From: a bacterium UBP14_UBA6098
Lineage (GTDB): Bacteria; UBP14; UBA6098
Length of the DNA stretch: 64,000 nt
Assembly: GCA_002428525.1 (NCBI GenBank)
Contig: DIWU01000030.1
Coordinates: forward strand, 42,009-106,008
Reading direction: 5' to 3'
A program made the translations under genes and the position numbers. The notes beneath the pieces are model-generated. The model was not told the DNA's origin. It made no database searches and was given only the letters and a program-made list of their open reading frames with translations. Below, one piece after another: positions 6,830-54,195 of this stretch (position 1 is its first letter; each line of letters begins with the position of its first letter).

Positions 6830-6832
6830 ATC

Positions 6833-9286: not shown

Positions 9287-11212
9287 ATGCGTAAATTATT
9301 ATTGCTTTTCGTGTTTTCGCTGATGTGCTCTGCCGCGTTCGCCGAGTCCATCGATGTCGTCAATAAAATCGGCGGCTTCAGAAACTCGCAGGCATGCGGA
9401 ATTCACAACGGAGTTGTCTATATTATCGACTATTATTATATTATCAGCTATAGCCCGACCTCCGGAGCTATCCTCGACACACTCAATTTCGGCGAGTATG
9501 TCCGAAACCTCGATTTTAAGGATAACACCGCGGTTGTTATCGGCATCGCAAATGTATATTTAATCGATATTTCAAACCCTTCGGCAATGATCGAACTCTA
9601 CAGAATCCCCCATGGGGGAACCTCCGGCTGGGATGTCGATGTTAGCGGCGATTATGCCTTTATCGCTTTACAAAGTCACCTCGGAATATATCGTATCTTC
9701 GGATCTACCTTGGCCTCGGTGGGCAGTTTTATCCCCCCCTCGGCCTTCCCGATGGCAAGATCGATTGCAGTGGCAGGCAACACCGCCTATGCCGGCCTCG
9801 GTAATTCTGGCATCGCCGCTCTCGATATCAGCACTCCCTCGTCGCCGTCTTTGCTTATGAGCGCGGACACTCCGGGAAACACCCTCGACCTGAAAATCGC
9901 CGGTGATGTCCTTGTTTGTTGCGATGGCGCCTATGTCGGCTCGGACACGACGAGTGTCCGATTCTTCGGAATTCCCTCTCCGACAACACTTTCCCCGCTC
10001 GGTTCATGGATTGCCCCCACAAACAGCGATGCAAGAGGGAGTTTCGTCGTTGGAAACAGGCTCGCCCTCGCCGATGGCGAAGGCGGAATCCGCGTGATCG
10101 ACTTCTCGACGCCCTCGAGCCCGGTTCAGGTTGTTCATCGCGATTTTCCGATCGATATTACCGATGTCTGCGTCTCGGGCACCGATATGTTCGCAACCGG
10201 CAGGGACACCTTCTATATTATGACCACCGACGCGTTCGAGCCGGATACCGGTTCGGAGCCGATTAGAATCACAGGCGTGCAACCGTCCCACGGTCTGCTT
10301 ACAGCCTGCGCGCCGATAGTCGAATTCGCCTTCACCGCGGGAAGCGAATCGATCGACAATAGCTCGCTTCAGATCTCAGCTCTTGGGCGAACATTCCGCG
10401 CCTCGGACTCCGAGGTCTCAATCACTGCAAGCTCAATCAGTCTCGACCTCTCGGGAAGCGCTATCGCCCCGCTCGACACAATCTGCGCCGTTCTGGATTC
10501 CCTCGCCGACGCCACCGGAACGCCCGCGATTAATCTTGGCATCTCGACATGTTTCCTATATGACGCCTTTGCGCCCCTGCCGGCTGTCTCCTACGGCCAC
10601 GCCGGCGATGTCCTTCACCCGGATTCTATAAGCATCTCCGGGACAATCCGCGATATCGGCCACGCCGGCTTCGTCGAGGACAGCTTCAAGGTTGTCGTCC
10701 GCGGAATCTCCTATGGCACCTCCGGAGCCTACCTCGACTTCGATCCGCCGAATTTCACATGCCGTCCCATGGGAACCTTCAATAATGGAGATGTCGTCGA
10801 TGTCTGTATCCGCGCAATCGACGCAGTCAGCGCCGCTAATTGCGGCCCGAACCGCCTCGACAGTTGCTGGACCTTCCGCGTTAGCTCCGAAGGAATCGAC
10901 GAAATCGCCTCCTTGCCCAAAAACCTATCGATCTCGGCTTGGCCGTCCCCCTTCAACTCCTCAGTGAATATCGCCCTCTCACCCCCCGGCGTCGGCGCGA
11001 GCAATGCTCGCTACGAGGCAACCGAAATCGAAATCTTCGATATTCACGGAAGGCTCGTCACCGGTCGCCTCGTGACGAATAGCGCTGAGGCGCTACTCGG
11101 GCCGACGCCGACAGTTTGGCACCCGGACGAGTCGTTGCCTTCGGGAGTATATCTTATAAGGGCGCGTTTGGGCGATCTATCCGCCGAGGCGAGGGTTATA
11201 TATTTGAAATAG
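9287..11212 (+). CDS. secreted LVIVD-repeat beta-propeller protein with a T9SS C-terminal sorting domain
   Basis: Signal peptide MRKLLLLFVFSLMCSAAFA. Repeated Y(A/F)...G..IIDIS.PS.P blades (LVIVD-like). C-terminus SAWPSPFNSS...IEIFDIHGRLV...GVYLIRARLGDLSAEARVIYLK matches the Por/T9SS CTD pattern. Confidence 0.65.
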   Translation: MRKLLLLFVFSLMCSAAFAESIDVVNKIGGFRNSQACGIHNGVVYIIDYYYIISYSPTSGAILDTLNFGEYVRNLDFKDNTAVVIGIANVYLIDISNPSAMIELYRIPHGGTSGWDVDVSGDYAFIALQSHLGIYRIFGSTLASVGSFIPPSAFPMARSIAVAGNTAYAGLGNSGIAALDISTPSSPSLLMSADTPGNTLDLKIAGDVLVCCDGAYVGSDTTSVRFFGIPSPTTLSPLGSWIAPTNSDARGSFVVGNRLALADGEGGIRVIDFSTPSSPVQVVHRDFPIDITDVCVSGTDMFATGRDTFYIMTTDAFEPDTGSEPIRITGVQPSHGLLTACAPIVEFAFTAGSESIDNSSLQISALGRTFRASDSEVSITASSISLDLSGSAIAPLDTICAVLDSLADATGTPAINLGISTCFLYDAFAPLPAVSYGHAGDVLHPDSISISGTIRDIGHAGFVEDSFKVVVRGISYGTSGAYLDFDPPNFTCRPMGTFNNGDVVDVCIRAIDAVSAANCGPNRLDSCWTFRVSSEGIDEIASLPKNLSISAWPSPFNSSVNIALSPPGVGASNARYEATEIEIFDIHGRLVTGRLVTNSAEALLGPTPTVWHPDESLPSGVYLIRARLGDLSAEARVIYLK

Positions 11213-14477: not shown

Positions 14478-17132
14478 TTAGCGAAGTAGCACAGCGCGGG
14501 AGATAGCGCCGGAATTCTTTGCTCGAACGAAATAGACGCCTGAAGGAACGGGGCTATTCTCGAAGTCGCAACCATTCCACAACGACCCGCGGGAGCAGTC
14601 CTTTATTTCGTTGATAACTTTACCGGAAATATCCATTATCTCGACATCGCCTGCAGATTTAATCATGCAGGAGGCGTTGAAGGGATTCGGGGTTACAGAT
14701 ATCTGCATCTCATCCGGCAGATCGGCCTCCGAGATAGCCATGAGTTGCACGAAGACTTGCCAGCAATAGCTCGTGTCGTTCGGGCCGTAAAAATCGGGGT
14801 TATCGGCGAGATTAGCGCATATTATCACCTCGGAGCCGTCACCGAAGGAAGCCCCGAAGGCGCCGCTCTGAAGAACTACCGTATCACCGCGGGCGGTTAG
14901 GCCGGCAGTCGCCCTCTCTATCAGAGATAGCGAAAGGTCGAAGAACTCGAAGGAAACCCTTTCCGGCGAAACAAGCATACCGGCCGGCGCATCGGTGGCG
15001 ATTATCCAGACATCGTCGGTGCCAACATGGAGCGTGTCTCCGGCCCTCGGAGAGAAATCGCCCGAAACCGGCGGACGAAGATCGACCGCGAAGCTGAAGG
15101 CAAGCGGCGCATCGAGCCCTGAGCCGATCATATCCTCCACGCTAATCAGGTTTACTATTACAACTTGCTCGTGGGTGTAGGTCTCGAAGGGAGTGATAGT
15201 CAGCATCGAGTCCGCGAAGCTGAGCGCCGAACTCGGCCATGAATAAACCACCCCGCCGACTGAAACCTCGATCGAGCTAACATCGATTCCATCTGGATCG
15301 ACGATCTTAAGGACTATCTCGGGGTTCCCGCTCGCGACGACATCGCCCGCGCGCGGATGCATCGCCGAGGCGTTCGGCCCGCCGCTGGGATTCACAAAGA
15401 AATCCCAGCTTTCAATAGTGAAATTCGGATCGCAGACATCCGGCGAGTCCCCAACGCGAATTCGAACACTGTGCGTTCCGACCGTCGAGGCCGCAGTATC
15501 GGGCGAGATTCTCACAGTCCAACCGTCCCAGCTCAGATGGCTGTCCGGATAGCGCAATGTGTCGCCGTTGTAAACAACCATTAAGGTCGAGATATCTATT
15601 CCGGTGATTGCGTCCGTAAGGTTCGCCGAAATCGAGGCCGGAAACTCCGTCAGTATTTGGCCGCGACGGGGAATTAGGTTGTCGATAACCGGCGGAATTA
15701 AATCGGCCGTGAATGACCAGCTCACAGGCGACTCAATATGGTTTCCGAAATTATCCGCCACATCGACGAGGCTGACAACGATAGGCACTCCGCTCGGCCA
15801 ATCGGTCGAGGGGGTATATCGGAGCGTGTCGCCGAGGAAAACGATCGAGGAGCTGTATCCGTTGATCGTGTCCGTTCCGTTGAAAAAACGAACCGAGTAG
15901 GGATCGACGCCGTCGGTGTCTTGGACGAGAAGCTTTACCGGATAGCGGTTGCAGGAGGTGACAATCGATGGTGTTGGCTGAATTATCGTCACATCGGGCG
16001 CCCCCGAGGTAGTCATCGCGGGAATCCTCGTCGCGAATATATCCGAGGTGACATCGCGCGCATCCTCCCATATTATAAGGTGATGCTCGCCGTTACAAAC
16101 CGATCGCGGCTTCTGCTGAGTGCCGTCCGCTGTGGAAACCGCCAGCTCCGGCCCCATCAATGTCCCGCTCGTGGCCACCCTTTGCCCGTAAATATCGGAA
16201 AGAACATCCCGATTGTCCTGCCAAACAACAAGATAGCCCACGCCATCGAACGACACCGACGGCCGAACCTGATTGCCCTCGGCCGAGGAGATCGGGAAGG
16301 GAAGCCCGACCGGCGAGCCGGCTGAGTCCAGAAGTATTCCATATATATCTCTGCCGGTCGTCGCACCGGCGCGCTCGTATGCCACGAGATAACCCCCGCC
16401 GCCGTGAGCTATCGAGGCAAAACTCTCCTCTTGGGTGACATTGGTCACGGCGTAAATCCCCGTGGTATCGACTCCGCTGACTCCATAGCTCACCTTTTGC
16501 GCATAAAGGCCCTTGCCTCCCGCGAGCGAATCCTCGAAAACAACCACCCACTCGGAGGCACCCCGCGCGATCGCCGGGTTTTTCTCGTCACCGTCGGCAA
16601 GACCCATCTGCTTGGGAATCGTGGTGCTCCGGTCGTCCTCCGTGACTGCCAAGTAAATATCGCTGACCCCGAAAACCCGAACCTCCCAAACCACTAAAAA
16701 CGCCCCGGTCATACCGGAGATACGGACATTCTGAATCGTGCCGTCAACTGTGACTATAGCGAAATTGTCGAGGTAGAGCGAGCCGTCGGGGTTAACGAGA
16801 TTGCCATAGATCTGGTATCCGGTTCTGCGGTCGAACCAAGCGTCGAGGTAATAGGTGCCGCCCCATGCGACATCGGGGATTTTCTGAAGGCCGGTGAAGG
16901 CGCACGCCGGCGACTCAAGCCCCGGAAGACTGCCGTCGGCCGTCACAATTCGGCCGTAAATATTCGGATTGCCGGTTCCGGCCCGCGCATCCTCCCAAGT
17001 CGCGAAAAAATCGGTGCCGTCGGTGGCCACTGCAGGAACGATCTGCTGGCCGGCCGCAGTCGATATCGCAATATCCTGTCCAAAGGCAAACCCAACAAAT
17101 AGTATTAACAAAAAAACCGCCGCTGACCTCAT
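14478..17132 (-). CDS. large secreted repeat protein with T9SS C-terminal sorting domain (~884 aa)
   Basis: Signal peptide MRSAAVFLLILFVGFAFGQ. The Met at 17132 has an AAGGGAGAG RBS; the ORF track extends to 17165. C-terminus ISVTPNPFNASCMIKS...VEIMDISGKVI...SGVYFVRAKNSGAISRAVLLR is a T9SS CTD. Confidence 0.6.
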   Translation of the reverse strand: MRSAAVFLLILFVGFAFGQDIAISTAAGQQIVPAVATDGTDFFATWEDARAGTGNPNIYGRIVTADGSLPGLESPACAFTGLQKIPDVAWGGTYYLDAWFDRRTGYQIYGNLVNPDGSLYLDNFAIVTVDGTIQNVRISGMTGAFLVVWEVRVFGVSDIYLAVTEDDRSTTIPKQMGLADGDEKNPAIARGASEWVVVFEDSLAGGKGLYAQKVSYGVSGVDTTGIYAVTNVTQEESFASIAHGGGGYLVAYERAGATTGRDIYGILLDSAGSPVGLPFPISSAEGNQVRPSVSFDGVGYLVVWQDNRDVLSDIYGQRVATSGTLMGPELAVSTADGTQQKPRSVCNGEHHLIIWEDARDVTSDIFATRIPAMTTSGAPDVTIIQPTPSIVTSCNRYPVKLLVQDTDGVDPYSVRFFNGTDTINGYSSSIVFLGDTLRYTPSTDWPSGVPIVVSLVDVADNFGNHIESPVSWSFTADLIPPVIDNLIPRRGQILTEFPASISANLTDAITGIDISTLMVVYNGDTLRYPDSHLSWDGWTVRISPDTAASTVGTHSVRIRVGDSPDVCDPNFTIESWDFFVNPSGGPNASAMHPRAGDVVASGNPEIVLKIVDPDGIDVSSIEVSVGGVVYSWPSSALSFADSMLTITPFETYTHEQVVIVNLISVEDMIGSGLDAPLAFSFAVDLRPPVSGDFSPRAGDTLHVGTDDVWIIATDAPAGMLVSPERVSFEFFDLSLSLIERATAGLTARGDTVVLQSGAFGASFGDGSEVIICANLADNPDFYGPNDTSYCWQVFVQLMAISEADLPDEMQISVTPNPFNASCMIKSAGDVEIMDISGKVINEIKDCSRGSLWNGCDFENSPVPSGVYFVRAKNSGAISRAVLLR

Positions 17133-17379
17133 AATCTCTCCCTTTCTATTTCGTTTAGTTAACAAAATATACTCTCTCGAGCTAAATAATTCAACAAAAA
17201 ACCATCGTTTATAGTGCGATGGTTGTTATCTATCTTTTCCAAAGTTAGCTATAATCTACATCATATATTTGTGAAGTTTTTAAAAGAACATATTAGTCAT
17301 AGTAATTTTGTGGCTCAATAGCTATCTTGCCGACATATAAGTGATTACAAAAAAGTTACCGCGCAGTGAAATTCCCCTA

Positions 17380-17408
17380 TTGACATTTTAGAAACCGGCA
17401 TATAATAT
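17380..17408 (+). promoter_or_regulatory. near-consensus sigma70-like promoter upstream of the terminase gene
   Basis: TTGACA 17380-17385, then TATAAT 17401-17406 (15-nt spacer) or TAATAT 17403-17408 (17-nt spacer). ~36 nt upstream of the ATG at 17444 with a GAGGA RBS. Confidence 0.4.
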
Positions 17409-17443: not shown

Positions 17444-18919
17444 ATGCCAAATAATCTCGCCTTCGAACTCGATAATCCCCCGACCCACCCGGCCGACAAC
17501 CCGCGCCGCTCCCCCGAAGAGGCCGTCCTCGACCGCATCGGCCGAATCATCGTCAACCCGGACTTCGACCTCAAGGAGCTGAAAGACGCCGCCGATGTCC
17601 TAAAAAGGCTCGCCGAAACCCCTGAAACCGCGCTGAATTCGCGCCCGGAGCCCTTCTCGCCCTCGCTCTTCCCCCATCAGGCCGAGTTCGTCAAATCGCG
17701 CGCGCGTTTTTCGGCCTTCATCGGCGGCGTCCGAAGCGGGAAAACCTACTCCGGCACCGCAAAGGCACTCTCCCGCGCCTTCCTTCTGCCGACCGTCGGC
17801 GCCGCTGTCGCCCCGACGGTCGGTATGGCGCGCGATGTCCTCGTCCCGCAATATGCCGAGCTTGCCGCAAACCGAATCGCCAAATGGACATCCTCCACCG
17901 GCGATATGATATTGGACAACGGTAGCAAGATACTCTTCCGTAGCGCCGACAACCCCGAGCGGCTTATGGGCCTTACCCTCGACTGGTTCCACCTCGACGA
18001 GGCGGCCCAGCTTCCCCGCCGCGTTTGGGAGGTGCTCGTCAACCGCACAATCTCCACCGGCGGCCCGGGGTTTATTACAACCACTCCGCGCGGCAAAAAC
18101 TGGGTTTGGCGGCTGGTCGAGGAATGGCGCGACGACCCCGACGCCTCGGCCTTCTTCGCGAAAACCTCCGACAACCCGCTCATCGATTCGGCCGAGATCG
18201 ACCGCGCCCGTCGCCAGCTCGACTCGCGCTATTTCCGCCAACAATTCGAGGCCAGCTTCGAGGAGGAGGGCACGCGCGTCTATGAAGACTTCACCCCGCA
18301 ACTCCATGTCCTCGAAGAGTCTTGGCAGATTCGCGACAACTGGCCGATCTACATCGGTGTCGATTTCGGCTGGACGCACCCCTCCGCGCTCATCTGGGCA
18401 CAACTCTCGCCCGAGGGCAAATGGTTCATCTTCGACGAGCTTGTCGAACAGCACCTTCGCCTCGAACGCCTCGCCGCGGCGATCTTGGGCGATCCGGTCA
18501 CCCTCGCCGGCAGGACATTCCGCGCGCGCATTCCCTACTCGAAGGTCGAGCGCATCATCTCCGGCATCGAGGGCCTGCAGTCGAGACAGGAATCCGGCGG
18601 AGAGTCAGCGCTGTCGGCGCTTTCGAGCTTAGGAATCTCCCGCGCGGTCGCGGCGCGCTCCTCGATCTTGTCGGGGATAAACGCCGTCCGGGCAAAACTA
18701 CTCTCCGCAGACAGCGAGGTGAAACTCTTCGTCGATCCGCGATGCCGTCGCCTCATCGACGATTTCTCGGGCTACAAATACCCCGAGGATCGAAATAGCG
18801 AGCCGGATGGCGAGCTTCCCCTCAAGGACGGCATCCACGACCACACAATGGACGCCCTGCGCTACATGATCGAGTTCGTCACGCCGCTTCGCCAAACAGA
18901 CTGGCGGTTCGGATTCTAA
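17444..18919 (+). CDS. phage terminase large subunit (TerL)
   Basis: Walker A FIGGVRSGKTYSG, Walker B LDWFHLDEAAQ, and a C-terminal RNase-H-like nuclease motif DGIHDHTMDALRYMI. 491 aa. Confidence 0.85.
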   Translation: MPNNLAFELDNPPTHPADNPRRSPEEAVLDRIGRIIVNPDFDLKELKDAADVLKRLAETPETALNSRPEPFSPSLFPHQAEFVKSRARFSAFIGGVRSGKTYSGTAKALSRAFLLPTVGAAVAPTVGMARDVLVPQYAELAANRIAKWTSSTGDMILDNGSKILFRSADNPERLMGLTLDWFHLDEAAQLPRRVWEVLVNRTISTGGPGFITTTPRGKNWVWRLVEEWRDDPDASAFFAKTSDNPLIDSAEIDRARRQLDSRYFRQQFEASFEEEGTRVYEDFTPQLHVLEESWQIRDNWPIYIGVDFGWTHPSALIWAQLSPEGKWFIFDELVEQHLRLERLAAAILGDPVTLAGRTFRARIPYSKVERIISGIEGLQSRQESGGESALSALSSLGISRAVAARSSILSGINAVRAKLLSADSEVKLFVDPRCRRLIDDFSGYKYPEDRNSEPDGELPLKDGIHDHTMDALRYMIEFVTPLRQTDWRFGF

Positions 18920-19038
18920 TTTCCTCCCCTGAAGAGCGAGTTCAACAGCCCCGCACGGTTCGAACACTATTCTTCCGCGGACATGCAAAACTCAAATCGC
19001 GTTAGCTAAAAAAATTATCACTTTAAAAAAGGAGTGCG

Positions 19039-20460
19039 ATGATGCCAAAATCCCGCGCGGCCGAATGGGTCGAGAGGACCCTTTTAGCCGCTAAACTCGC
19101 CGTCCGAAAGGATTTCAAGGACGAGATCGCCAAACGGATCGACTATTACAACGATAGGCAGATCCCCTATCTGCTCGAGCTCCTCGAACAAAAATACCGC
19201 GATGCCGACGCCCTCGCGCTCGAGCCCGAGTTCGTCAATGTCATCAAGACCATCGTCGATGGAACCGCGCTGGTCTATCGCTCAGGCGCGGCGCGAGTCC
19301 TGACCGGCGGCTCCGGCGAGGTTTCGCCGGAGGAGAAAGCCCTTTGGGACTGGCTGATGTCCGCCTCGAATTACGAGGCGACGATGAAAACCGTCCACCG
19401 CATGGTCAAACTCTGCCGAACCGTGCTTGTCAAACCCTCATTCCGCGGCGGCCGAATCAAGTTCGATATACTGACCCCGGATCAGGTCGATATCGTCCAA
19501 GACCCGGAAGACCCGACCGAGGCGAGCGCGATTATATACACCCGCCCCCGCGCCGAGACGCTCTGCGCCGACGAGCTCGAGTTTCACTACTGGGACGCGG
19601 CGTCCTACCGCCGCTTCACCGCCGACGGCGTCATCCTCCGAAGCCCGAACAACCCAGAGGGCCTCAACCCCTACGGCGTTCTGCCCTTCGTTCGCTTCAC
19701 CGAAACGCTCCCGCTGTCGAGCTTCTTCGTCGATGCCGGCGAGGACCTCACAGTCGTGCAGGACGCAATCAACCTCAAGCTGGTTCAGCTGAACCATCTG
19801 CTGAAGATGCAGTCCTTCAGCGTGCCGGTGCTCATCGGCTACGACGGCAAGGAGAAGGTTGTCGTCGCGCCCGGGCGGCCGATATGCATCCCCCTCGGCC
19901 AGATCGGCGAGGGCAAGCCCGACTTCAAGTTCGTCTCACCGAACCCGGCAATCTCCGAGTGCCTCGAAGCGATCCGCGAGTCGATCGCGCGGCTCTCGAA
20001 CAGCTATCACATCAGCTCCGCGAGCTACTCTATCAGCGGAAGCCAAAAGAGCGGCTTCGCGCTGGTGATGGAGAACCTCGCCCTTTTCGAGGATCGCCAG
20101 AATGCAGTGCCCTTCTATGAGGACGCCGAGGAGCGGATGTTTGACCTTGTCAAGCAGATTTGGAACACGCACAGCGGCTCGCTTCCGGCCTCGCATCCCT
20201 TCGCGGGAAAGGTCTTCAGCCCGGCAACGCGCCTCTCCGTGACTATCCACGAAGCAAGACTCCCCCAGTCCGCCTCCGATGAGGCCGACGAATGGAAGTT
20301 CCTTATCGAAAACGGCATGGCAACGCCCATCGATTATATGATGATACGTTTTCAGATGACGCGCGAAGAGGCCGAGGCGAAATTCCGCGAGAACCTGCAA
20401 TGGCGCGAGGCAATCGCTTCGACACAAAACATTGACAAATCTCAGGAGGAGACCGAATGA
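19039..20460 (+). CDS. putative phage portal protein
   Basis: 473 aa acidic protein immediately after TerL and before a scaffold-like gene (conserved head-module order). No motif-level proof. Confidence 0.5.
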   Translation: MMPKSRAAEWVERTLLAAKLAVRKDFKDEIAKRIDYYNDRQIPYLLELLEQKYRDADALALEPEFVNVIKTIVDGTALVYRSGAARVLTGGSGEVSPEEKALWDWLMSASNYEATMKTVHRMVKLCRTVLVKPSFRGGRIKFDILTPDQVDIVQDPEDPTEASAIIYTRPRAETLCADELEFHYWDAASYRRFTADGVILRSPNNPEGLNPYGVLPFVRFTETLPLSSFFVDAGEDLTVVQDAINLKLVQLNHLLKMQSFSVPVLIGYDGKEKVVVAPGRPICIPLGQIGEGKPDFKFVSPNPAISECLEAIRESIARLSNSYHISSASYSISGSQKSGFALVMENLALFEDRQNAVPFYEDAEERMFDLVKQIWNTHSGSLPASHPFAGKVFSPATRLSVTIHEARLPQSASDEADEWKFLIENGMATPIDYMMIRFQMTREEAEAKFRENLQWREAIASTQNIDKSQEETE

Positions 20461-20951
20461 ACGAAGCCTTCGACACCCAAGATGACGATCAGATAATCGA
20501 CCAGCTTGCGGCCAATCCGCAGGACATCGCAAAGCTACTCGCCGCTAAGCGCAAGGCCAATGCCGAGGCCAAGCTCTTCCGCGAGCGCCTCGAGACCGCC
20601 GAGGAGGCCCTCAAAGAACGCGAAACCCTCTCCTCTGAAGTCGAGCGGCTTCGCGCGCGCGGCCTTCGCGACGCCTTCTTCATCGAGGCCCTGCAAGAGC
20701 GAATCAAGCCCAACCGCCTCGAAGCCGCCTTCAAGATCGCGGATTTAGACCTCACCGCGGAGGATCCCGCCACCACTGCCAAGGCCGCCCTCGGAAGGCT
20801 CAAGGAGGGCTTCCCCGAACTCTTCGCCGAGACGCCCCCGCCACCGGAGGTTGACAACGCGGGCTTCTCCCGCGCAAAGCCCGATCCGCTTACCGCCGCA
20901 AAGGCCTCCGGAAACACGATGGCCATGCTGAAGGCCCTTCGCTCGCAGTAA
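20457..20951 (+). CDS. putative phage scaffolding protein
   Basis: 164 aa, highly charged Ala/Glu/Arg/Lys-rich predicted coiled coil. Its start overlaps the portal stop (ATGA). Position between portal and capsid-like gene. Confidence 0.35.
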   Translation: MNEAFDTQDDDQIIDQLAANPQDIAKLLAAKRKANAEAKLFRERLETAEEALKERETLSSEVERLRARGLRDAFFIEALQERIKPNRLEAAFKIADLDLTAEDPATTAKAALGRLKEGFPELFAETPPPPEVDNAGFSRAKPDPLTAAKASGNTMAMLKALRSQ

Positions 20952-20965
20952 AACTACCCGCCCTC

Positions 20966-21109
20966 CCGTGGCGTCGGGATTTCTGCGCTCTCGGGAAAGC
21001 TCGCTTTCCCCGAGAGCCCAGAAATCGCCGGCCGGCCGGGCAAAAACACCGTTAATTCGGACATCGCCGCTCCGGCCGGACGGCCCGCGCATGCGCGGCC
21101 GACGCCCCC
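20966..21109. repeat. copy A of the GGGGGCGTCGG-TIR hairpin-rich element (MITE/REP-like), upstream of the capsid-like gene
   Basis: Left end ccgtgGCGTCGG (degenerate TIR), right end CCGACGCCCCC 21099-21109. Internal perfect palindrome gatttctgcgctctcgggaaagc / gctttccccgagagc.cagaaatc and a gcgcatgcgc palindrome. ~85% identical to copy B. Confidence 0.6.
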
Positions 21110-21150
21110 GGAAAGCGCCGTTCAACTAAAAAACCAACCGAAAGGAACAA

Positions 21151-22284
21151 ATGAACACATCATACGACTTCGCGAACCTCAAGCGCGACCTTGGGGAAAC
21201 CTTCGAGACGCTGTCAAAGGGCAGACACAACCTATTGTCGGTCATCCCGATTGTCGGGCAGGCCAAGAACTACAAGCACGAGTGGCTCGAGGATGTCATC
21301 GAGCCGACTATCGACGCCCTCGACGGCGCGGTCCTCGACACTGACCTTACTATCGATGTTGACAACGGCTCGAAGTTCGCGGTGGGCGACATCCTCGCCT
21401 TCGACGGCTATGACGAGGTCGTCCGCGTGACGGCAATCACCGACGACGCTCTGACGGTCTCCCGCGCCTATGGCGGCACCTCGGCGGTCGGCATGGCCGA
21501 TGACACCGTCGTCCGCGTCGTTTCGCGCCCCCGTTCGGAGGGAAGCGATCCGGGCTTCGACGCCGTAGCCGAGCCCTCGAGCGAGTTCAACTTCACGCAG
21601 ATTTTCGACCGGACGGCCAAGGTCTCGAAGTCCGCTGTAGCGGCCGAGCACCTCGCGATCGACGATCTCGTCGATTTCCATGTCAAGCACCACCTCGAGC
21701 TACTTCAGATCGAGATGAACGCCGCGGCGATCTACGGCCGCCGCTACGCCAACACCTCCGACGCCTCGATTCCGCGGACAATGGGCGGCATCCTCTACTT
21801 CCTCGATCAGGCCGGCGGGAATGTCATCGACAATTCCGCCGCGGCGCTTTCCGCCGAGGACCTGAACGACCTCATCGAGATGATCGCCGCAGATGGCGGC
21901 AGGCCGGACCTTCTCGTCTGCAACACGATTCAGGCGCGCGCTATCTCGGCCTTCAATGCCGAGTCCGGCTCGGCGCCCATTGTCAGAACCACTTGGTCGG
22001 ATGAGCGCACCGGCGGCGCGGTTTACGAGTTCGTCGGCGACCTGCCGCTCGGCATGGTCGAACGAATCGTCGTCGATACCGCCTTCCCGCAGGACAAGAT
22101 CGCCCTGCTCGACTCGTCGAAGCTCGCACTCGTGCCGCTCCGCGGGCGCGCCTTCCGCGACCTGCCCGCGACGCCCTCCGAGGCCTCGGACTACATCGCC
22201 CGCAGGATTATCGGCGAATACACCCTCGAGGTCAGAAACGCCGCCTTCGCGCACGGCCTCCTCAAGAACCTCGCTGTGAGCTAA
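21151..22284 (+). CDS. putative phage major capsid protein
   Basis: 377 aa, strong RBS, follows the scaffold-like gene. Size and position fit an HK97-fold major capsid protein. No direct motif confirmation. Confidence 0.45.
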   Translation: MNTSYDFANLKRDLGETFETLSKGRHNLLSVIPIVGQAKNYKHEWLEDVIEPTIDALDGAVLDTDLTIDVDNGSKFAVGDILAFDGYDEVVRVTAITDDALTVSRAYGGTSAVGMADDTVVRVVSRPRSEGSDPGFDAVAEPSSEFNFTQIFDRTAKVSKSAVAAEHLAIDDLVDFHVKHHLELLQIEMNAAAIYGRRYANTSDASIPRTMGGILYFLDQAGGNVIDNSAAALSAEDLNDLIEMIAADGGRPDLLVCNTIQARAISAFNAESGSAPIVRTTWSDERTGGAVYEFVGDLPLGMVERIVVDTAFPQDKIALLDSSKLALVPLRGRAFRDLPATPSEASDYIARRIIGEYTLEVRNAAFAHGLLKNLAVS

Positions 22285-22294
22285 GACTCCCCCC

Positions 22295-22437
22295 GGGGGC
22301 GTCGGGATTCCTGCGCTCTCGGGAAAGCGAGCTTTTCCGAGAGCGCAGAAATCGCCGGCCGGCCGGGCGAAAATCTCGCTCGATTCGGCCATCTCTGCTC
22401 CGGCCGGACGGCCCGCGCATGCGCGGCCGACGCCCCC
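22295..22437. repeat. copy B of the GGGGGCGTCGG-TIR hairpin-rich element, downstream of the capsid-like gene
   Basis: Perfect 11-bp TIRs GGGGGCGTCGG (22295-22305) and CCGACGCCCCC (22427-22437). Same internal palindromes as copy A, but the central loop is the reverse complement (gcgagc vs gctcgc). Confidence 0.6.
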
Positions 22438-22464
22438 TTGGCGTTCAACCGAAAAACACTTTGA

Positions 22465-22848
22465 ATGGAGAAAAAAATGGACTGGGAGAACTCGGTTTTA
22501 TTTGACATCAACGATTTGTATGACTTCGAGCCGGAGGTTTTGGAGTCGCTCGACCGCATCGACCGGCGCACAGCAGTTCGCGGGGTTTTGGCCTCGCGGA
22601 TTCGCAGGGCCTACAGCGGCCTCGGCGCGACGGACATTCTATCGCGGATAAAGAACCCCGAAGTTTTGCGCGAACCTTCGATTTTCCTCAACCTCTCGCT
22701 GGTTTTCAACGCCAATTCCACAATCGGCGGGATTTACGCGCAGAAGGCCTCGGACTATTCGGAGCGTTTCGAGGCCTCGATTCGCTCGGCGCTCGCCCTT
22801 CTCGAATTCGAGGGGCTGGAGAAGACCGGCGTCTTGATTGTCCGCTAA
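22465..22848 (+). CDS. hypothetical phage-cluster protein (127 aa)
   Basis: ORF with an AGGAG-like RBS directly after element B, co-oriented with the head genes. Candidate head-completion or connector protein by position only. Confidence 0.4.
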   Translation: MEKKMDWENSVLFDINDLYDFEPEVLESLDRIDRRTAVRGVLASRIRRAYSGLGATDILSRIKNPEVLREPSIFLNLSLVFNANSTIGGIYAQKASDYSERFEASIRSALALLEFEGLEKTGVLIVR

Positions 22849-22870
22849 CCCTTATTCAGAAAGGATTCCT

Positions 22871-23332
22871 ATGGAAAAATTGAATATCGACCGCGCTTTG
22901 GACGAGATTATATCCGGCTTCGGCGCACTCGACGACAGGAATAACAAGCTCGTCCAATCCTCGATTCGCGGATTTCGCCGTATGAGGGACATCGCCGTCT
23001 CGGAATACCCGATCGCTATGACCGGCCTCGTTTCGGCGGAAATTGGCCCGCAGGAGCATTTCTGCGAAGCGCTATCGGTTTTCCTGACCCGTGGTCGCGA
23101 GGCCGCCGAAAATTCGGCAAACCTCCGCGCCGCCCTTGTAGATCGCCTCTCCGAGGGTTGGGCGGATTTCGACATAACAAACATCGTCATCGGCGAGCTG
23201 TTCCCCGGTTTCACAGAGTCGGCCGAATCGGACGCCCTGCCCGAGGGGGCCTATCTCGCCTCATGGCTCGGAATCGAGCGGCCGATAGAGGGCTTTTATT
23301 TGGCATTCAACATCGCGCTGGACGCGGAATAG
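22871..23332 (+). CDS. hypothetical phage-cluster protein (~153 aa)
   Basis: The ORF track starts at 22838. The ATG at 22871 (MEKLNIDRAL) follows AGGATTCC and is the likelier start. No motifs. Confidence 0.4.
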   Translation: MEKLNIDRALDEIISGFGALDDRNNKLVQSSIRGFRRMRDIAVSEYPIAMTGLVSAEIGPQEHFCEALSVFLTRGREAAENSANLRAALVDRLSEGWADFDITNIVIGELFPGFTESAESDALPEGAYLASWLGIERPIEGFYLAFNIALDAE

Positions 23333-23341
23333 GAGATCAAA

Positions 23342-23650
23342 GTGAAATATTCCATATTAGTCTTCATGCTCGCGATCTCGCTCGTGGCATTTTGGGTCGA
23401 GATTCCCGCCGATTCGGCGCGCACACTCTCCGCCCCCGACTCGACAGGCACCTTCCCGATCGACTCGACAGCCGTTTTCGTTTCCGATACCTCGCTGAAC
23501 GGACTTGTCCGCCCCGCGGTAATTATCTCTTTCTCGAAAGGCATCCCGTATCTGCTCCAAGAACTGGGCTATTGCGCGCCTCCGGACTCTTCGCGCCGCT
23601 TTTTCGCCCTTTGCTCGGAGGCCGAAAGGTGGTTCCAATGGCAAGAATAA
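23342..23650 (+). CDS. small secreted/membrane-anchored hypothetical protein (102 aa, GTG start)
   Basis: N-terminal hydrophobic segment ILVFMLAISLVAFWV. Overlaps the next gene's start by 13 nt. Confidence 0.35.
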   Translation: MKYSILVFMLAISLVAFWVEIPADSARTLSAPDSTGTFPIDSTAVFVSDTSLNGLVRPAVIISFSKGIPYLLQELGYCAPPDSSRRFFALCSEAERWFQWQE

Positions 23651-24900
23651 TCGCACTGCTCTTAATTGTCGCTTCCTGTTTTTCAGCGACATACTGGATT
23701 CATTCATCTCTCGGAAACGACGCGTGGCCGGGCACTTCGCCGGATTCGGCCTTCGCGAGCCTCGGCGCCGCCACCGCCTTAATGACACAATGCGATTTCG
23801 CCTTCGCTTGCGGTTCGTTCAACGAATCCCTTACGCTCTCGAATAACAAGCACGAGGGTTGCACGTTCGCCGCATGGCCGGACAGCGCTGACTGGCTCAT
23901 CGACGGCGATTCACTTCGCACTTGCGCCATTGTCGGCGATTATTGCGGCCAACCCAATGAATTAGCCGTATCTTTTTACAATTTAATTGCAGTATATCCT
24001 GCCAATTATAGCATTATGTTAGGTGAATCCAGTTCCGGCTTCTTCAAGAATTGCTCTATAACCTCATACTCAGCCGGAATCTATACGAATCATTCACAAC
24101 TGGTGATGGATTCTTGTTCCGTTTATGCTGAAACATATTGCATCTTCTTGAATGGAAATCTGGCAACAATAACCAATTCATCATTGACATCTGTTTCCGA
24201 TTATTGCATCAAGGAAACTAACAACCCCTCGACACTGATCTCGACCGGAAATATCTTCCAAGGTTACGGCGGAATATACTGCTACAACGGCCTCGCCGCG
24301 AGGCATTACAGCGATATCTTCAGAGTTTCCACTCGAGCGATCTATGCCTATCGTAATTCACCTCAATACTTCGAACTTGTCAAATGCCTCTTCGTTGGCG
24401 GTGAATTCGGCCTCAGTTCGACCTATTACAACGCCACTCAACCCTTCTTCTCCATTGTCAACTGTTGCTTCGATTCTATTGATAATGCCCTCAGCTTCGT
24501 CGGACTTCGGGGAGCTGTAAATATAATCAATACTATTTTCATAAATTGTAACAAGGCGATCGATTCACCGGATCTCATCAATGCCGCTGGCCTCGTCATC
24601 CATTCATGTGGCACAGATACAACAGGCCTCAAGCAAACGATATCCTACCATAGCTTCGACCCCGAACTCGATTTTATGAAGATCGCTCGATCGGATAGCT
24701 GTAAATATATCGGAGTGAGTTCCGCCTTCGGTCTCGATGCACCTGTTTACGACGATCTCGGTCATACCTTCTTCGATTCCGCCGGACAAACCGCAATAGG
24801 CTGGAGAAGCCCATATTCCGTGTATCTGTGGAGTTGCCCCGACATCCCTTCAAATCAAAACAAATGGGGGATCAATTCCCCCGGAAAGAGAATTAAATGA
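23638..24900 (+). CDS. secreted Cys/Asn/Ser-rich beta-helix-like protein (420 aa); candidate receptor-binding or tail-spike-like protein
   Basis: The ATG at 23638 (MARIIALLLIVASCFSATYW, signal-peptide-like) follows an AAGGTGG RBS. The ORF-track 5' extension (23158-23637) overlaps two other genes and looks like non-coding read-through. Repetitive N..S/T and Cys-containing short beta-strand repeats (NCSITSYSAGIYTNHSQLVMDSCSVYAETYCIFLNGNLATITNSSL). GC drops sharply from ~23900. Confidence 0.5.
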   Translation: MARIIALLLIVASCFSATYWIHSSLGNDAWPGTSPDSAFASLGAATALMTQCDFAFACGSFNESLTLSNNKHEGCTFAAWPDSADWLIDGDSLRTCAIVGDYCGQPNELAVSFYNLIAVYPANYSIMLGESSSGFFKNCSITSYSAGIYTNHSQLVMDSCSVYAETYCIFLNGNLATITNSSLTSVSDYCIKETNNPSTLISTGNIFQGYGGIYCYNGLAARHYSDIFRVSTRAIYAYRNSPQYFELVKCLFVGGEFGLSSTYYNATQPFFSIVNCCFDSIDNALSFVGLRGAVNIINTIFINCNKAIDSPDLINAAGLVIHSCGTDTTGLKQTISYHSFDPELDFMKIARSDSCKYIGVSSAFGLDAPVYDDLGHTFFDSAGQTAIGWRSPYSVYLWSCPDIPSNQNKWGINSPGKRIK

Positions 24901-25658
24901 AATATTTAGTTTTTTTACTGTTTTTCGTTGCGGCAGTCTTCGGATTTATATATCCAATAACTGTCGATCTCGTGGGGTCTGATGGGCGAACTGTCGCGGC
25001 CGATTCAGCCTTCTGCACAGTCCTCGCAAATAGCGAAACACTCCTCACGCCGACCCGTATGTCATCTGTCGCTCGATCGACTACCATCGACTTCGATTTT
25101 CCCGAAACCTTGTGGTTCGCAACAGCGATCATTTCCGCTTTCTGGGAGGATACGCTTTTCGATACTGTAGCATTTACTATACCATCAGCCACAAACCCCT
25201 TTATGTTGACATCCATGCTATCCAATACACTCTCGGAAGCCCATGGTTCCGGTTTATGGCAATCTAAAGCAATACTCCCATTCTTGTTGACAATGGAAGA
25301 GAATGAGATTGTTGCTACGTTATCAGGGAGTTCCTCAAGGCCTATCTCTGTAATCAGAGGTGATAGTAAATGTGTGGATATTTATCTTGTCGATTCTTCA
25401 GGCGAAGCCATTGATATTACCGGTGCATCTGCCGTCTTCACAGTAAAGCAACGAGCAAGCGATATTACTGCGTATATCGTTGACACGCTCGAACTCATAG
25501 AGCCGGCAGAGGGTTTTCTCCGACTCGATCTAAATCCGCTACAAACATCGATCGTTCCTCAGAGCTATTCGGCAGATATTCAACTTTCTTTCCCAGATAG
25601 CTCAATTGCAACGGTTTGGCAAAATCGTTTCATTGTCCAATGGGATGTAACCCGCTAA
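24897..25658 (+). CDS. secreted hypothetical protein with Ig-like C-terminal region (253 aa)
   Basis: N-terminal signal/anchor MKYLVFLLFFVAAVFGF. Its start overlaps the previous stop (ATGA). Low-GC coding sequence. Confidence 0.45.
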   Translation: MKYLVFLLFFVAAVFGFIYPITVDLVGSDGRTVAADSAFCTVLANSETLLTPTRMSSVARSTTIDFDFPETLWFATAIISAFWEDTLFDTVAFTIPSATNPFMLTSMLSNTLSEAHGSGLWQSKAILPFLLTMEENEIVATLSGSSSRPISVIRGDSKCVDIYLVDSSGEAIDITGASAVFTVKQRASDITAYIVDTLELIEPAEGFLRLDLNPLQTSIVPQSYSADIQLSFPDSSIATVWQNRFIVQWDVTR

Positions 25659-25673
25659 CAAACAGGATTGATC

Positions 25674-25910
25674 ATGTCCGACGAATATCGCAATATCTTT
25701 TGGAAACTCGCGCCAATCGCCCTTTCCGTCTTTCTCGCACTAATCGGAATCGTCTGGGGAATGACATACGCCGAACTTCATTCACGAGTTAACCGTATGG
25801 ACGACATAATCTTAACACAAAAGGAGGCTATTGTTCGCATCGAAGCAAAACTCGATATAATCCTCGAAAGCAATGTCAACCGAAAGGAATTACAATGCAA
25901 AACGTATTAA
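25674..25910 (+). CDS. small single-TM protein, holin-like (78 aa)
   Basis: One hydrophobic helix (LAPIALSVFLALIGIVWGM) followed by a charged tail. ATG at 25674 with an AGGA RBS; the ORF track starts at a TTG at 25668. Lies immediately upstream of a second small TM protein and a lysin. Confidence 0.4.
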   Translation: MSDEYRNIFWKLAPIALSVFLALIGIVWGMTYAELHSRVNRMDDIILTQKEAIVRIEAKLDIILESNVNRKELQCKTY

Positions 25911-26230
25911 CAGCAATCTTAATTAAGGCAATTATACCACTAATTCTCGTCGGAATTGGTTTTTTAGCCGCCAAGTATCTAAAGCCATGGCTCAACCAAA
26001 ACTCCGATCGAATGATCCGCGCGAACGAGATAGCACTTATCGCCGACAGAATCACCGACGAGTTTCTTCTGCTCGCACCGAGTGCCCACTGGAGCGAATG
26101 GATCGATGAGGCTGTCGATCGCTTGATCCTCGCCTGCGGCCTCACCGATGCCGACGAGGCCTCGGCATTAGCACATCGAGAGATAGCTAGCCAGATTATG
26201 AAGAAAAACCTTGCAGGAATTGCAAAATAG
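25895..26230 (+). CDS. small membrane protein, holin/antiholin-like (111 aa)
   Basis: N-terminal TM helix AIIPLILVGIGFLAA. Overlaps the upstream gene by 16 nt and abuts the lysin gene. Confidence 0.4.
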   Translation: MQNVLTAILIKAIIPLILVGIGFLAAKYLKPWLNQNSDRMIRANEIALIADRITDEFLLLAPSAHWSEWIDEAVDRLILACGLTDADEASALAHREIASQIMKKNLAGIAK

Positions 26231-26832
26231 TGCAGTTGCGACAATACTACAATATTGGCGCTTATTATATCATGAAAATAATAGAATATTTGGATGATTT
26301 CAAATATGCAACTGCAAATCTATGGCCAAAACAGGTTGAGAAAGATGAAAACTTCTTTATCTGGTTCGTCGCTCAAGCTATGGCTGAAAGCTCTCTCAAC
26401 CCTCACGCGGTCTCGAGGGTAGGCGCTTGCGGACTGATGCAGATCATGCCGAAAACATGGCACGATATTCGCCTCTATCTGCCGTATCTTAACGAAGATA
26501 TCTTCGATCCGGCCTCGAATATCGAGGGTGGAATCTGGTATGTTCGCTGGTGCTTCGACCGTTTTCAGTTCGTGCGTGACTTTAATGATAGGTTTAAAAT
26601 CGCGCTGTCGTCCTACAACTGTGGGCCTTCGCGGATTCGCAGGTTGTTAGAGCCGTTTGACAATCCAACCTATTTAGCGCTCGAACCCCAGCTCCCTCGC
26701 GAGACCTCGTTTTATATCGAGCGAATAGTTAAATTCCACGATGTATTGCTTAACAATATCAAGCTCGAAATCGAGAATGAAATCAGTCCCGAAGCAGGCT
26801 CTCGGCCGTCTGAGCGACATTCTGCGCAGTGA
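26230..26832 (+). CDS. phage-type lytic transglycosylase (SLT domain) endolysin
   Basis: [26 protein letters not shown] contains the SLT catalytic Glu-Ser and GLMQ motifs. The start is either the GTG at 26230 (overlapping the previous stop) or the ATG at 26272. Its 3' end overlaps the convergent tkt 3' end by 50 nt. Confidence 0.75.
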
Positions 26833-28813
26833 TTCCGAATTTGTCATACAGGACATCCCCGGGCGCGCTCGCGCCGAAGCGCTCCATGCCGATAAATAGG
26901 CCATCTGCGCCGATATATCGCTCCCAGCCCTGCCGCACACCGGCCTCCACCGCGACGCGGAGGCCTACAGCGGCGGGCAAAACCGCCTCGCGGTAATCGC
27001 GCGGTTGAGCCTCGAAAAGCTCCCACGAAGGCATCGAGACCACTCGCGCCCTGATGCTCCGTTCCGCAAGCATCTCCGCCGCCTCGACCGCTATCGAAAC
27101 CTCCGAGCCGGTCGCGATGAGGATCAGCTCCGGCGCGCCCTCGGGCTCGCGCAAAATATAGCCCCCGCGACTAACACCGTCGGCCGCCTTCGCCTTTGTT
27201 TCCGCAAAGATCGGTAGGTTCTGCCGGCTGAAAACAAGCACTGTCGGGGTTTTCGAGCGAATCGCTATCTTCCAAGCCGCGGCGGTTTCGAACGCATCGG
27301 CCGGCCGAATGACCGTGAGCCCGGGGATCGCCCGAAGGCTCGCGAGTTGCTCGACCGGCTGGTGCGTCGGGCCGTCCTCGCCGACCCCGATGCTGTCGTG
27401 GCTGAAGACGAAAACCACCGGCAGGAGCGACAGCGCGGCGAGGCGCATCGGCGGGCGCATATAGTCCGAGAAGACGAAAAAGGTGCCGGTGAATGGCCGC
27501 AAACCGCCATGCAGAGCGATTCCGACGGCGATCGAGCCCATCGCGTGTTCGCGGACGCCGAAATGAATATTTCGGCCGCTATAGCCCCATTCGCCGCCGA
27601 CCGCGCCCTCGAGGCCGCCTTTGTTCTCGGGGCTTTGAAAATCCCCCTCGCCCTTCAGCCAAGCGAAGGTCGAGGGGTTGAGGTCGGCGCATCCGCCGAT
27701 CAGCTCAGGCTGGGCCTTTGCGAGGGCATTCAGGACGATCTCGCCGGCCTTTCGCGTGGAGATCGGCTTCTGTCCGAAATCGATGCCATCGAGCGAATTT
27801 TCCCAACCCTCCGGCAAAGCCGCCGAGAAGCGGCGCTCGAATTCACTGACCTTTTCGGGAAATTTCTCCGCAAAGCGCGCGAATTCGGCCTGCCACTCGA
27901 TTCGCTGGCTTTCACAGCGATCAGCGCTCTTTGCGAAGTGCGCGGAGACATCCGCTGGGACGAGGAACCGCGGCTCTGTCGGCCATCCAAGCGCTGTCTT
28001 GGCCGCGGAAAGCTCCTCCTCACCCAAGGGCGCGCCGTGCGAGGCCGAGCTTCCGGCCTTATTCGGCGCGCCGAAGCCGATAATCGTCCGAACTGCGATC
28101 AGCGAGGGCCTTGCGGTTTCGGCCTTCGCGCTCGAAAGCGCTTCGTCGATAGCGTCGATATCGTTGCCGTCCGCGACTTGCAGAACCTGCCAGCCCGCCG
28201 CCTCGAAACGGCCGGCAATCTCCTCCGAGGTCGAGAGCGCGGTCGATCCGGCCAGCGAGATTCGGTTGTCGTCGAAGAGGACGATCAGCTTGCCGAGCCG
28301 CAGATGCCCGGCCAGCGCGACAGCCTCGTAGCTGACGCCCTCCATTAGGTCGCCGTCGCCGCAGAGCGCGTAGGTTCGGTGGTTCACGACCCCTTCGCCG
28401 AACTCCGCCGCGAGATGCGCCTCGGCAATCGCCATGCCGACAGCGTTCGCGAGGCCCTGCCCAAGCGGGCCGGTGGTCGCCTCGACGCCTTTAGTTGTAA
28501 GGCTTTCCGGATGGCCGGGGGTTTTCGAGCCCCATTGGCGGAAGCTTTTTATATCCTCCAAGCCGATTCCCGCGCCGCTCAAATGCAGGAGCGAGTAAAG
28601 CAACATCGAGCCGTGCCCCGCGGAGAGGACGAAGCGGTCGCGGTCGGGCCAGTCCGGTTGCGAGGGGTCGAAGCGGAGGTGGCGCGTCCAGAGGATGTAG
28701 GCCATCGGCGCGGCGCCCATCGGAAGCCCCGGGTGGCCGGAATTCGCCTTCTGGATTGCATCCGCCGAGAGAAAGCGTATCGTGTTTATGCATTTTTCTT
28801 CGAGCGATGTCAA
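26783..28813 (-). CDS. tkt: transketolase
   Basis: 676 aa. N-terminal [31 protein letters not shown] is the ThDP-binding His region. GDG..MEG and the C-terminal FGITAQNV segment match transketolase. Confidence 0.9.
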
Positions 28814-54192: not shown

Positions 54193-54195
54193 GTA

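Follow-up and report, generated by a model that had tools for sequence, protein, structure and literature searches.

A twelve-gene capsid operon among host genes

Here, we analysed a 64,000-nucleotide stretch of DNA from the bacterium UBP14_UBA6098 (assembly GCA_002428525.1, contig DIWU01000030.1, positions 42,009 to 106,008; hereafter the window), which is part of a 146-kb metagenomic contig and holds a block of phage-derived genes on its plus strand at positions 17444-26832. The block consists of 12 co-oriented open reading frames (ORFs) with short gaps over about 9.4 kb, and start and stop codons overlap at the portal/scaffold, g07/g08, g08/g09 (ATGA) and g10/g11 junctions. In order, the genes encode a large terminase (TerL), a portal, a scaffold-like protein and a major capsid protein, then two small cytoplasmic proteins (g05, g06), three proteins with export signals (g07 to g09), two single-pass membrane proteins (g10, g11) and an SLT-domain lytic transglycosylase. 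We found that divergent host genomes retain this capsid-and-packaging operon, and with it the envelope-directed accessory genes, in an intact and constrained form, and that the element is without autonomous mobility or replication functions. An earlier reading of the window from its letters alone (the original prediction) had set limits for the cluster that correspond exactly to the TerL start and the SLT stop, and had left open whether it is an element like a gene transfer agent (GTA), a satellite or a stripped-down prophage; our results favour a domesticated element, disfavour a decaying prophage and find the modules of a satellite absent.

Profile searches of the ORFs against Pfam and PHROGs, and against PDB sequences for g05, g06, g08 and g09, gave a firm identity to four genes, in keeping with the original prediction of a clear TerL, a portal-sized and a capsid-sized protein and an SLT lysin. 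TerL (17444-18919, 491 aa) matches Terminase_6N (4.8e-15) and phrog_2 (3.4e-49). Its Walker A (GGVRSGKT) and Walker B (LDWFHLDE) motifs are legible in the sequence, and it carries a conserved, clade-specific N-terminal extension of ~75 aa; matches to phage TerL proteins begin at residue 71-88. The portal protein (19039-20460, 473 aa) matches SPP1_portal (3.6e-15) and phrog_64 (3.7e-6). The major capsid protein (21151-22284, 377 aa) is a member of the SU10/DUF5309 family (SU10_MCP 2e-48; phrog_1328 1.4e-37), with 165.9 bits against Pfam PF17236 (cutoff 24.1) over profile positions 5-292 of 292. The lytic transglycosylase (26272-26832, 186 aa), which has no signal peptide, matches SLT (4.3e-21) and the endolysin family phrog_669 (4.2e-26). 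The 164-aa protein between portal and capsid (20457-20951) had been called scaffold-like; its match to the head scaffolding family phrog_2303 is weak (1.4e-3) and recurs, likewise weak (7.5e-4), in the orthologue from the distant locus L022. These matches and the gene position suggest a scaffold-like protein.

The two cytoplasmic proteins g05 (22477-22848, 123 aa; 12 orthologues) and g06 (22871-23332, 153 aa; 8 orthologues) gave no Pfam, PHROG or PDB match, and scans of every orthologue of both against PHROGs at E<=1 gave no consistent match. The g05 gene directly follows the capsid gene in both forms of the element described below, and its product aligned with the 119-aa post-capsid protein of a Desulfurobacterium prophage at an hhalign probability of 49%; by its position, it is a putative head-tail adaptor or neck protein. 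The orphan g06, which has only five related clusters among 1.84 billion representative proteins, would by position alone be an adaptor or connector candidate, putatively a portal or neck closure protein.

The three proteins that follow carry export signals. In g07 (23342-23650, ~102 aa), a Sec-type signal peptide is apparent from a conserved N-terminal hydrophobic segment, after which the orthologues share the mature start WVE(I/V)xADS. The 420-aa g08 (23638-24900) had been described as a secreted beta-helix-like protein, and this description is borne out by a conserved Sec-type signal peptide with AxA-like sites preceding (Y/W)W(I/V)HS, by a right-handed beta-helix core at residues 100-330 of its AlphaFold (AF2) model (pLDDT 70-96) and by the Pfam domain Beta_helix (PF13229) in two of its orthologues. 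The Foldseek hits of the model (E 1e-3 to 1e-2) are glycoside hydrolases and polysaccharide lyases as much as phage tailspikes; as these matches are generic to beta-helices, a tailspike and a secreted enzyme are not separable. The 253-aa g09 (24897-25658), which lies between the beta-helix gene and the membrane protein genes and had been overlooked in the first inventory, joins an N-terminal signal or anchor segment to a conserved C-terminal beta-sandwich. Its C-terminal half matches phrog_1084 (2.9e-11) and, below the Pfam cutoff, BppU_N (9e-4); an AlphaFold model from 8 homologues was too poor for use (pLDDT 44). As with g05 and g06, PDB profile searches with g08 and g09 gave no match.

The remaining two small genes encode g10 (25674-25910, 78 aa), with one hydrophobic segment conserved in 8 orthologues, and g11 (25895-26230, 111 aa), in which an N-terminal transmembrane helix precedes a soluble domain of ~85 aa and whose gene adjoins the SLT gene in both forms. 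Both had been described as holin-like transmembrane proteins; one transmembrane helix is present in each, and neither matches a family. The SLT gene and the convergent tkt gene (26783-28813, minus strand) overlap at their 3' ends, and the final ~16-20 SLT codons, which run into tkt (26783-26832), have no counterpart in the orthologues.

Five of the 12 genes are orphans without detectable relatives outside the clade. Even at E<=0.5, Pfam gave no match for g05, g06, g07, g10, g11 or the TerL extension, and the relatives of g06, g08 and g09 amount to 5 to 8 clusters among the 1.8-5.8 billion proteins of the collections, all of them inside this element family. Such orphans could be taken to hide the replication and integration genes of a complete, extremely small temperate or chronic phage. 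We consider this highly improbable, because the five orphans are small cytoplasmic or envelope-targeted proteins that show no features of a polymerase, primase, recombinase or helix-turn-helix (HTH) protein, and because host genes stand inside copies of the cluster and no free-virus contigs occur in IMG/VR, as set out below.

Missing modules and surroundings of the block

Within the block, Pfam and PHROGs searches detected no integrase, repressor, replication gene or small terminase (TerS), in agreement with the original prediction. With the PDB searches included, no recognisable tube, tape measure, sheath or baseplate family was found, and protease and HNH families were likewise not detected. 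The earlier claim that tail genes are absent therefore stands in so far as none is recognisable, while a total lack of tail function cannot be fully settled because five conserved post-capsid genes have no known relatives. The only tail-type likenesses in the block are the beta-helix protein and the BppU_N-like domain, both on proteins with export signals.

As had been noted, the block lies between a type IX secretion system (T9SS) cargo gene and tkt. Just outside it we found host genes (T9SS cargo protein, tkt, DeoC and others) instead of integrase, tail or replication modules, and all other large ORFs examined in the window are host genes as well, e.g. those for T9SS cargo, tkt, DeoC, peroxiredoxin, Mur ligase, PyrD, PheT and aspartokinase. 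A search of the window for tRNA genes found none, nor did a repeat search reveal att-like direct repeats at the block ends.

The sole recombinase of the 64 kb is a 279-aa XerC/D-type tyrosine recombinase (51612-52451, minus strand; Phage_integrase and Phage_int_SAM_1 domains), which stands 25 kb from the block among housekeeping genes and is not part of the element. A two-gene restriction-modification island of 39-41% GC at 53467-55032 (minus strand), encoding an EcoO109I-type restriction endonuclease (4.6e-87) and an N6/N4 DNA methylase (9.6e-48), was probably acquired horizontally.

Recurrence of the operon in related genomes

Is this gene set peculiar to the window? Relatives of the operon were sought in a collection of 5.8 billion proteins, in one genome per GTDB species and in the JGI metagenomes. 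For the capsid protein, 80 homologues were found, the closest of which lie in Zixibacteria-type contigs; the named relatives belong to candidate division Zixibacteria. The comparison of orthologous loci proposed together with the original prediction revealed the same 12 genes, intact and under purifying selection, in at least seven other Zixibacteria-type contigs. Identical gene order is seen in L006, L008, L012, L013, L014 and L072, and a variant with a shorter g08 and otherwise the same order in L010, L015 and L076. The capsids of this short form are 72-84% identical to that of the window, and the contigs of these relatives measure 111 to 770 kb. None of the 12 ORFs is disrupted in the window or in the complete short-form (form-A) loci L006 and L008, and partial contigs retain every gene that they cover, except for a possible TerL frameshift in L076.

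The lack of mobility functions extends to the relatives. No integrase is present in the Pfam-annotated neighbourhoods of L001, L006 and L008, and no integrase or recombinase, replication or regulation module was found in the window block or in L006, L008, L021 and L022. The gene maps of the remaining loci, which carry no Pfam annotation, show nothing resembling integration, replication or regulation modules.

Genes of other origin have entered the cluster repeatedly, with the TerL/portal junction as a recurrent insertion site. This junction is empty in the window and in L008 (about 120-150 nt). It holds MurJ and an AI-2E transporter in L006 (4671-7528), a HicB/SecB-like toxin-antitoxin-chaperone trio in L013 (4095-5387) and L015 (4385-7686), and four unknown ORFs in L076 (3269-7561). 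In L015, a T9SS cargo gene is also inserted between g11 and SLT. T9SS cargo genes stand beside or inside many further copies (among them L010, L014, L017 and L018), and the window itself has genes with T9SS C-terminal sorting domains at 9287-11212, 14478-17165 and 35908-40350; since such genes are frequent elsewhere in the window and in these genomes, we judge their association with the cluster compatible with chance.

Selection, composition and inheritance

Synonymous sites are saturated between most copies. In the unsaturated pairs L001/L012, L010/L015 and L022/L023, every gene has a dN/dS of 0.06-0.32, and the small and envelope-targeted genes are no exception. The GC content of the cluster ranges from about 40% to 62% and follows that of each host flank. 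For the head half of the cluster in the window (TerL to g07), the cosine similarity of relative synonymous codon usage to the host is 0.967, compared with 0.93 for an average host gene. The GC content is 57-63% in the head genes and 43-49% from g08 to SLT (23638-26832).

These data bear on the possibility that the block is a non-functional prophage remnant in which decay has not yet begun. Many modules of a complete phage are indeed missing, and two copies are visibly or possibly damaged (a deletion in L095 and TerL in two frames in L076). Yet the pseudogenes, truncations and variable content of decaying prophages were not found beyond L095 and possibly L076: the 12 ORFs are intact in the window, L006 and L008, synonymous sites are saturated while dN/dS remains at 0.06-0.3, every time it is this minimal set of genes that is kept, a promoter motif is conserved (see below), and codon usage has converged on that of the host. 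A mere remnant is thus quite unlikely in our view. The recurrence of all 12 genes intact, purifying selection, the lack of an integrase and the insertions of host genes together favour a selectively maintained, domesticated element.

Part of the family appears to be inherited with its surroundings. L010, L014, L015 and L076 have downstream neighbours in common, and the proteins of these neighbours are only 40-76% identical, i.e. as divergent as the element proteins or more so, which argues for co-inheritance in this subclade. As a separate observation, a serA/serC-like pair (2-hydroxyacid dehydrogenase and class-V aminotransferase) is 93-95% identical between L008 (18031-20120) and L013 (111-2247), where it lies on opposite sides of the element and the element genes are only 43-79% identical. 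In L008, the pair has 53% GC within a 44% GC genome, which suggests that host DNA was transferred next to the element.

A longer sister form

A second form of ~15 kb is represented by L017, L018, L021-L023, L025, L030, L081 and L095, with capsids 52-60% identical to that of the window. It shares with the window TerL, portal, the scaffold-like protein, capsid, g05, the C-terminal domain of g09, g11 (50-78% identical between the two forms) and SLT. In addition, it encodes an HTH protein, c22 (112-143 aa), with weak TerS and transposase-HTH matches, whose gene immediately precedes TerL in every one of the six sister-form loci covering the region and is missing from the window. Its TerL (412-422 aa) lacks the extension of the window TerL, and it has cytoplasmic proteins of its own (c34, c13, c15 and c24, the last with a CBM96 domain) as well as Amidase_2. 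The genes g06, g07 and g08 are absent, and the proteins that carry the g09 C-terminal domain have no signal peptide.

Here too, host genes surround and interrupt the cluster. The proteins scanned in the flanks of L021 and L022 comprise host genes (purB, UvrD, an ABC transporter, a response regulator) and no integrase. A Fic gene occupies the TerL/portal junction in four loci (L017, L022 at 6704-7834, L023 and L025), and a class-V aminotransferase and T9SS cargo genes are further host or accessory genes inside sister-form clusters. An apparent MFS-like transporter in the L021 cluster was read from the sequence rather than from a Pfam profile match.

The short form has neither the TerS-like gene nor the fibre-like cytoplasmic proteins, and it has instead g06 to g08, a signal peptide on g09 and the TerL extension; with these differences it looks like a further-reduced derivative, the former genes having been lost and the latter features gained. 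We also considered g06 as a diverged c34 or c13; no homology was found and this origin was rejected.

The envelope-targeted genes of the short form could point to a use of the capsid machinery by the host for something other than gene transfer. Examples would be a lysis-coupled release of protected extracellular DNA, for a biofilm matrix or nutrient storage, or a membrane-docked capsid in an envelope-spanning device. Together with the capsid genes, five envelope-targeted proteins in a row have been conserved, all under purifying selection, the cytoplasmic domain of g11 is predicted to be membrane-anchored from the positive-inside rule applied to the sequences, and no delivery apparatus is recognisable. 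However, we know of no precedent for putting a terminase-portal capsid to that purpose. The intact nuclease and ATPase motifs of TerL and the neck-like proteins rather fit a release of sealed, DNA-filled heads, and the cytoplasmic fibre-like proteins of the sister form (CBM96; g09 without a signal peptide) point to an adsorption function in the ancestor. We therefore regard such a co-option as unlikely.

Promoter and structured repeats

A near-consensus sigma70-like promoter had been predicted at 17380-17408. The site exists on the plus strand, 37 nt upstream of TerL; its perfect hexamers TTGACA (17380-85) and TATAAT (17401-06) are spaced by 15 nt, whereas the 17-nt spacing yields TAATAT and a 10/12 match. 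Of 12 related loci, 6 have a comparable motif (11-12/12, 15-16 nt spacing) in the 300 nt that precede the first gene, against an expectation of 0.084 per 300 bp (~0.08 per locus).

The capsid gene is flanked by two copies of a structured repeat of ~165 nt on the plus strand, 77-95% identical, which occurs no more than twice in the window. The upstream copy (20942-21109) contains the direct repeat families D2, D3 and D5 and is predicted to fold into a three-way junction of -96.5 kcal/mol (z -6.7); the downstream copy (22270-22437) likewise forms a predicted three-way junction (-101.7 kcal/mol, z -5.7). An Rfam search of the structured-repeat region gave no match. At the same two intergenic positions, the closest relative (L012) carries a pair of repeats that differ in sequence from those of the window, and a strong hairpin follows the capsid gene immediately 3' in all orthologues. 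These elements would fit a role in differential expression or stabilisation of the capsid message.

Relation to known viruses, satellites and gene transfer agents

Among the 2.9 million viral contigs of IMG/VR, the best capsid match has 42% identity, and portal and TerL reach at most 27% where detected at all. Searching 50,697 deposited phage genomes with tblastn gave no match for portal or g09; TerL reaches up to 32% identity, and the capsid up to 33%, to Bacillus and Vibrio siphophages with full tail modules. The DUF5309 family is thus no marker of short-tailed phages. Phages and prophages with this capsid family (Vibrio phage 230E39-1, Bacillus phage vB_BauS_KLEB27-1 and the Mu-like prophage of Desulfurobacterium thermolithotrophum; 30-47% capsid identity) share the local order of scaffold, capsid and small neck genes with the window. 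In contrast to the window, they are complete genomes or prophages of 42-65 kb with a head-completion adaptor, closure protein, major tail protein, tape measure and baseplate, or a transposase, and neither their portals nor their terminases closely resemble the proteins of the block. In the literature on Zixibacteria GTAs, Zixibacteria prophages and DUF5309, we found no description of the element.

Could the block be a satellite-like element that builds tail-less capsids of its own and takes the tails from a co-resident or environmental phage, in the manner of phage-inducible chromosomal islands that form capsids (cf-PICIs)? These islands release tail-less, DNA-filled capsids that are later joined to foreign tails (bioRxiv 10.1101/2025.02.11.637232). 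Like the window block, cf-PICIs are compact and encode their own terminase, portal, capsid and small neck proteins and no tail; the size of ~9-15 kb, the genomic context that differs among relatives and the mosaic 3' module would also suit a satellite. The modules that define cf-PICIs, however, are integrase or recombinase, replication, regulation, TerS, HNH, protease, adaptor and connector, with no lytic genes. In the block, the integrase, replication, regulation, TerS, HNH and protease modules are all missing, and the SLT protein and two membrane proteins supply lysis-type genes that cf-PICIs by definition do not have. Moreover, no integrase, recombinase, replication, regulation, TerS or HNH gene was found in any Pfam-annotated locus, host genes interrupt the cluster, att-type flanking direct repeats were not found, and the clade is absent from IMG/VR. 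A satellite of this kind is, in our estimation, distinctly improbable.

The resemblance to GTAs (RcGTA of Rhodobacter/Caulobacter, BaGTA, VSH-1, Dd1 and VTA) is closer in organisation. In these elements, as in the window, a phage-derived head cluster is fixed in the chromosome without integrase or replication genes, under purifying selection, with unrelated genes around and inside the cluster and a host-type promoter. In the block and in the Pfam-annotated orthologous loci, we indeed found what GTAs present, i.e. a chromosomal structural cluster unable to integrate, excise or replicate. The TerS proteins of known GTAs have no DNA-binding domain (PMC11841831), and no separate TerS gene was found in the block. 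On the other hand, sequence relation to GTAs exists only through the generic TerL, portal and HK97-fold families, and the capsid is of the SU10/DUF5309 type. The element also differs in having no tail tube, tape measure or baseplate, and hence no sign of a tailed particle, and no protease, in its scaffold-like protein, in the lysis-type genes inside the cluster, in three proteins with export signals and in a size of only 9.4 kb. As it shows neither the tailed-particle feature of GTAs nor the defining modules of cf-PICIs, we describe it as GTA-like in function and file it in no described family. Most likely, it represents a previously undescribed family of elements in Zixibacteria-type genomes.

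A model for the function of the operon

On balance, and with slightly better than even confidence, we favour a domesticated, functional operon for the formation of particles, GTA-like in its action, with no canonical tail and with exported partner proteins. We speculate that transcription starts at the conserved sigma70-like promoter, under some host control, and that procapsids assemble on portal and scaffold. TerL would then begin packaging without a sequence-specific small terminase; the lack of an HTH TerS-like gene and the new TerL extension point to headful packaging of whatever DNA is available, as in GTAs. The g05 and g06 proteins may close the portal on DNA-filled heads, while the membrane proteins and the SLT protein would open the envelope to let the particles out. 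The exported beta-helix and immunoglobulin-like proteins may act on surface polysaccharide or serve as an attachment device.

Several observations weigh against this interpretation. GTAs as described have tails, and none is recognisable here. The three conserved post-capsid proteins with export signals are at odds with the assembly of virions in the cytoplasm. At 9.4 kb, the cluster is in principle small enough for the capsid that it encodes, and the rule by which GTA particles are unable to carry the genes that encode them is therefore not to be assumed. The TerL extension could have been explained as a fused TerS C-terminus, but neither hhalign (7.8%) nor the c22 hidden Markov model against TerL (E=5) gave a significant result. 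Two copies do not look functional throughout: in L095 (10001-10789), a deletion fused capsid residues 1-179 in frame to the C-terminal part of c13, and in L076 (1733-3195 of a 770-kb contig), TerL is read in two frames because of a 1-nt difference in a GCGCGCGGCGG run, which may reflect either a true frameshift or a mistake in the assembly. Inheritance is also not purely vertical. The GC content at third codon positions is 42-54% from g08 to SLT, compared with a host mean of 68 +/- 8, which suggests that this module was recently replaced from a lower-GC relative, and outside the subclade with common neighbours the genomic context differs among several relatives.

A more unusual reading is a tail-less viriform, in which sealed, DNA-filled capsids would be combined with attachment or penetration parts (g07, g08 and g09) that are exported through Sec. 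The exported proteins would meet the capsid in the periplasm or after lysis, or would remodel the envelope of the producer or the recipient. The step from the sister form, with cytoplasmic fibre-like proteins and an HTH TerS, to the window, with exported proteins and no TerS, fits this scenario as a second step of domestication. We know of no phage, GTA or satellite with such a division between cytoplasmic head assembly and exported adsorption proteins, and we consider the scenario improbable.

If the GTA-like interpretation is true, the Zixibacteria capsid operon would be an independent origin of gene transfer agents in uncultivated sediment and subsurface bacteria, for which the routes of horizontal gene transfer are largely unknown. 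To our knowledge, GTAs have arisen in a handful of independent domestications, none of them in FCB-related candidate phyla. Two stages of reduction, the ~15-kb form with TerS-like and fibre-like proteins and the 9.4-kb form, exist side by side, so that the steps of domestication become directly comparable, and the operon is small enough for synthesis and expression. With no tail and with exported partners, it would represent either a new way to deliver or use encapsidated DNA, or the smallest gene set that makes a useful DNA-filled capsid.

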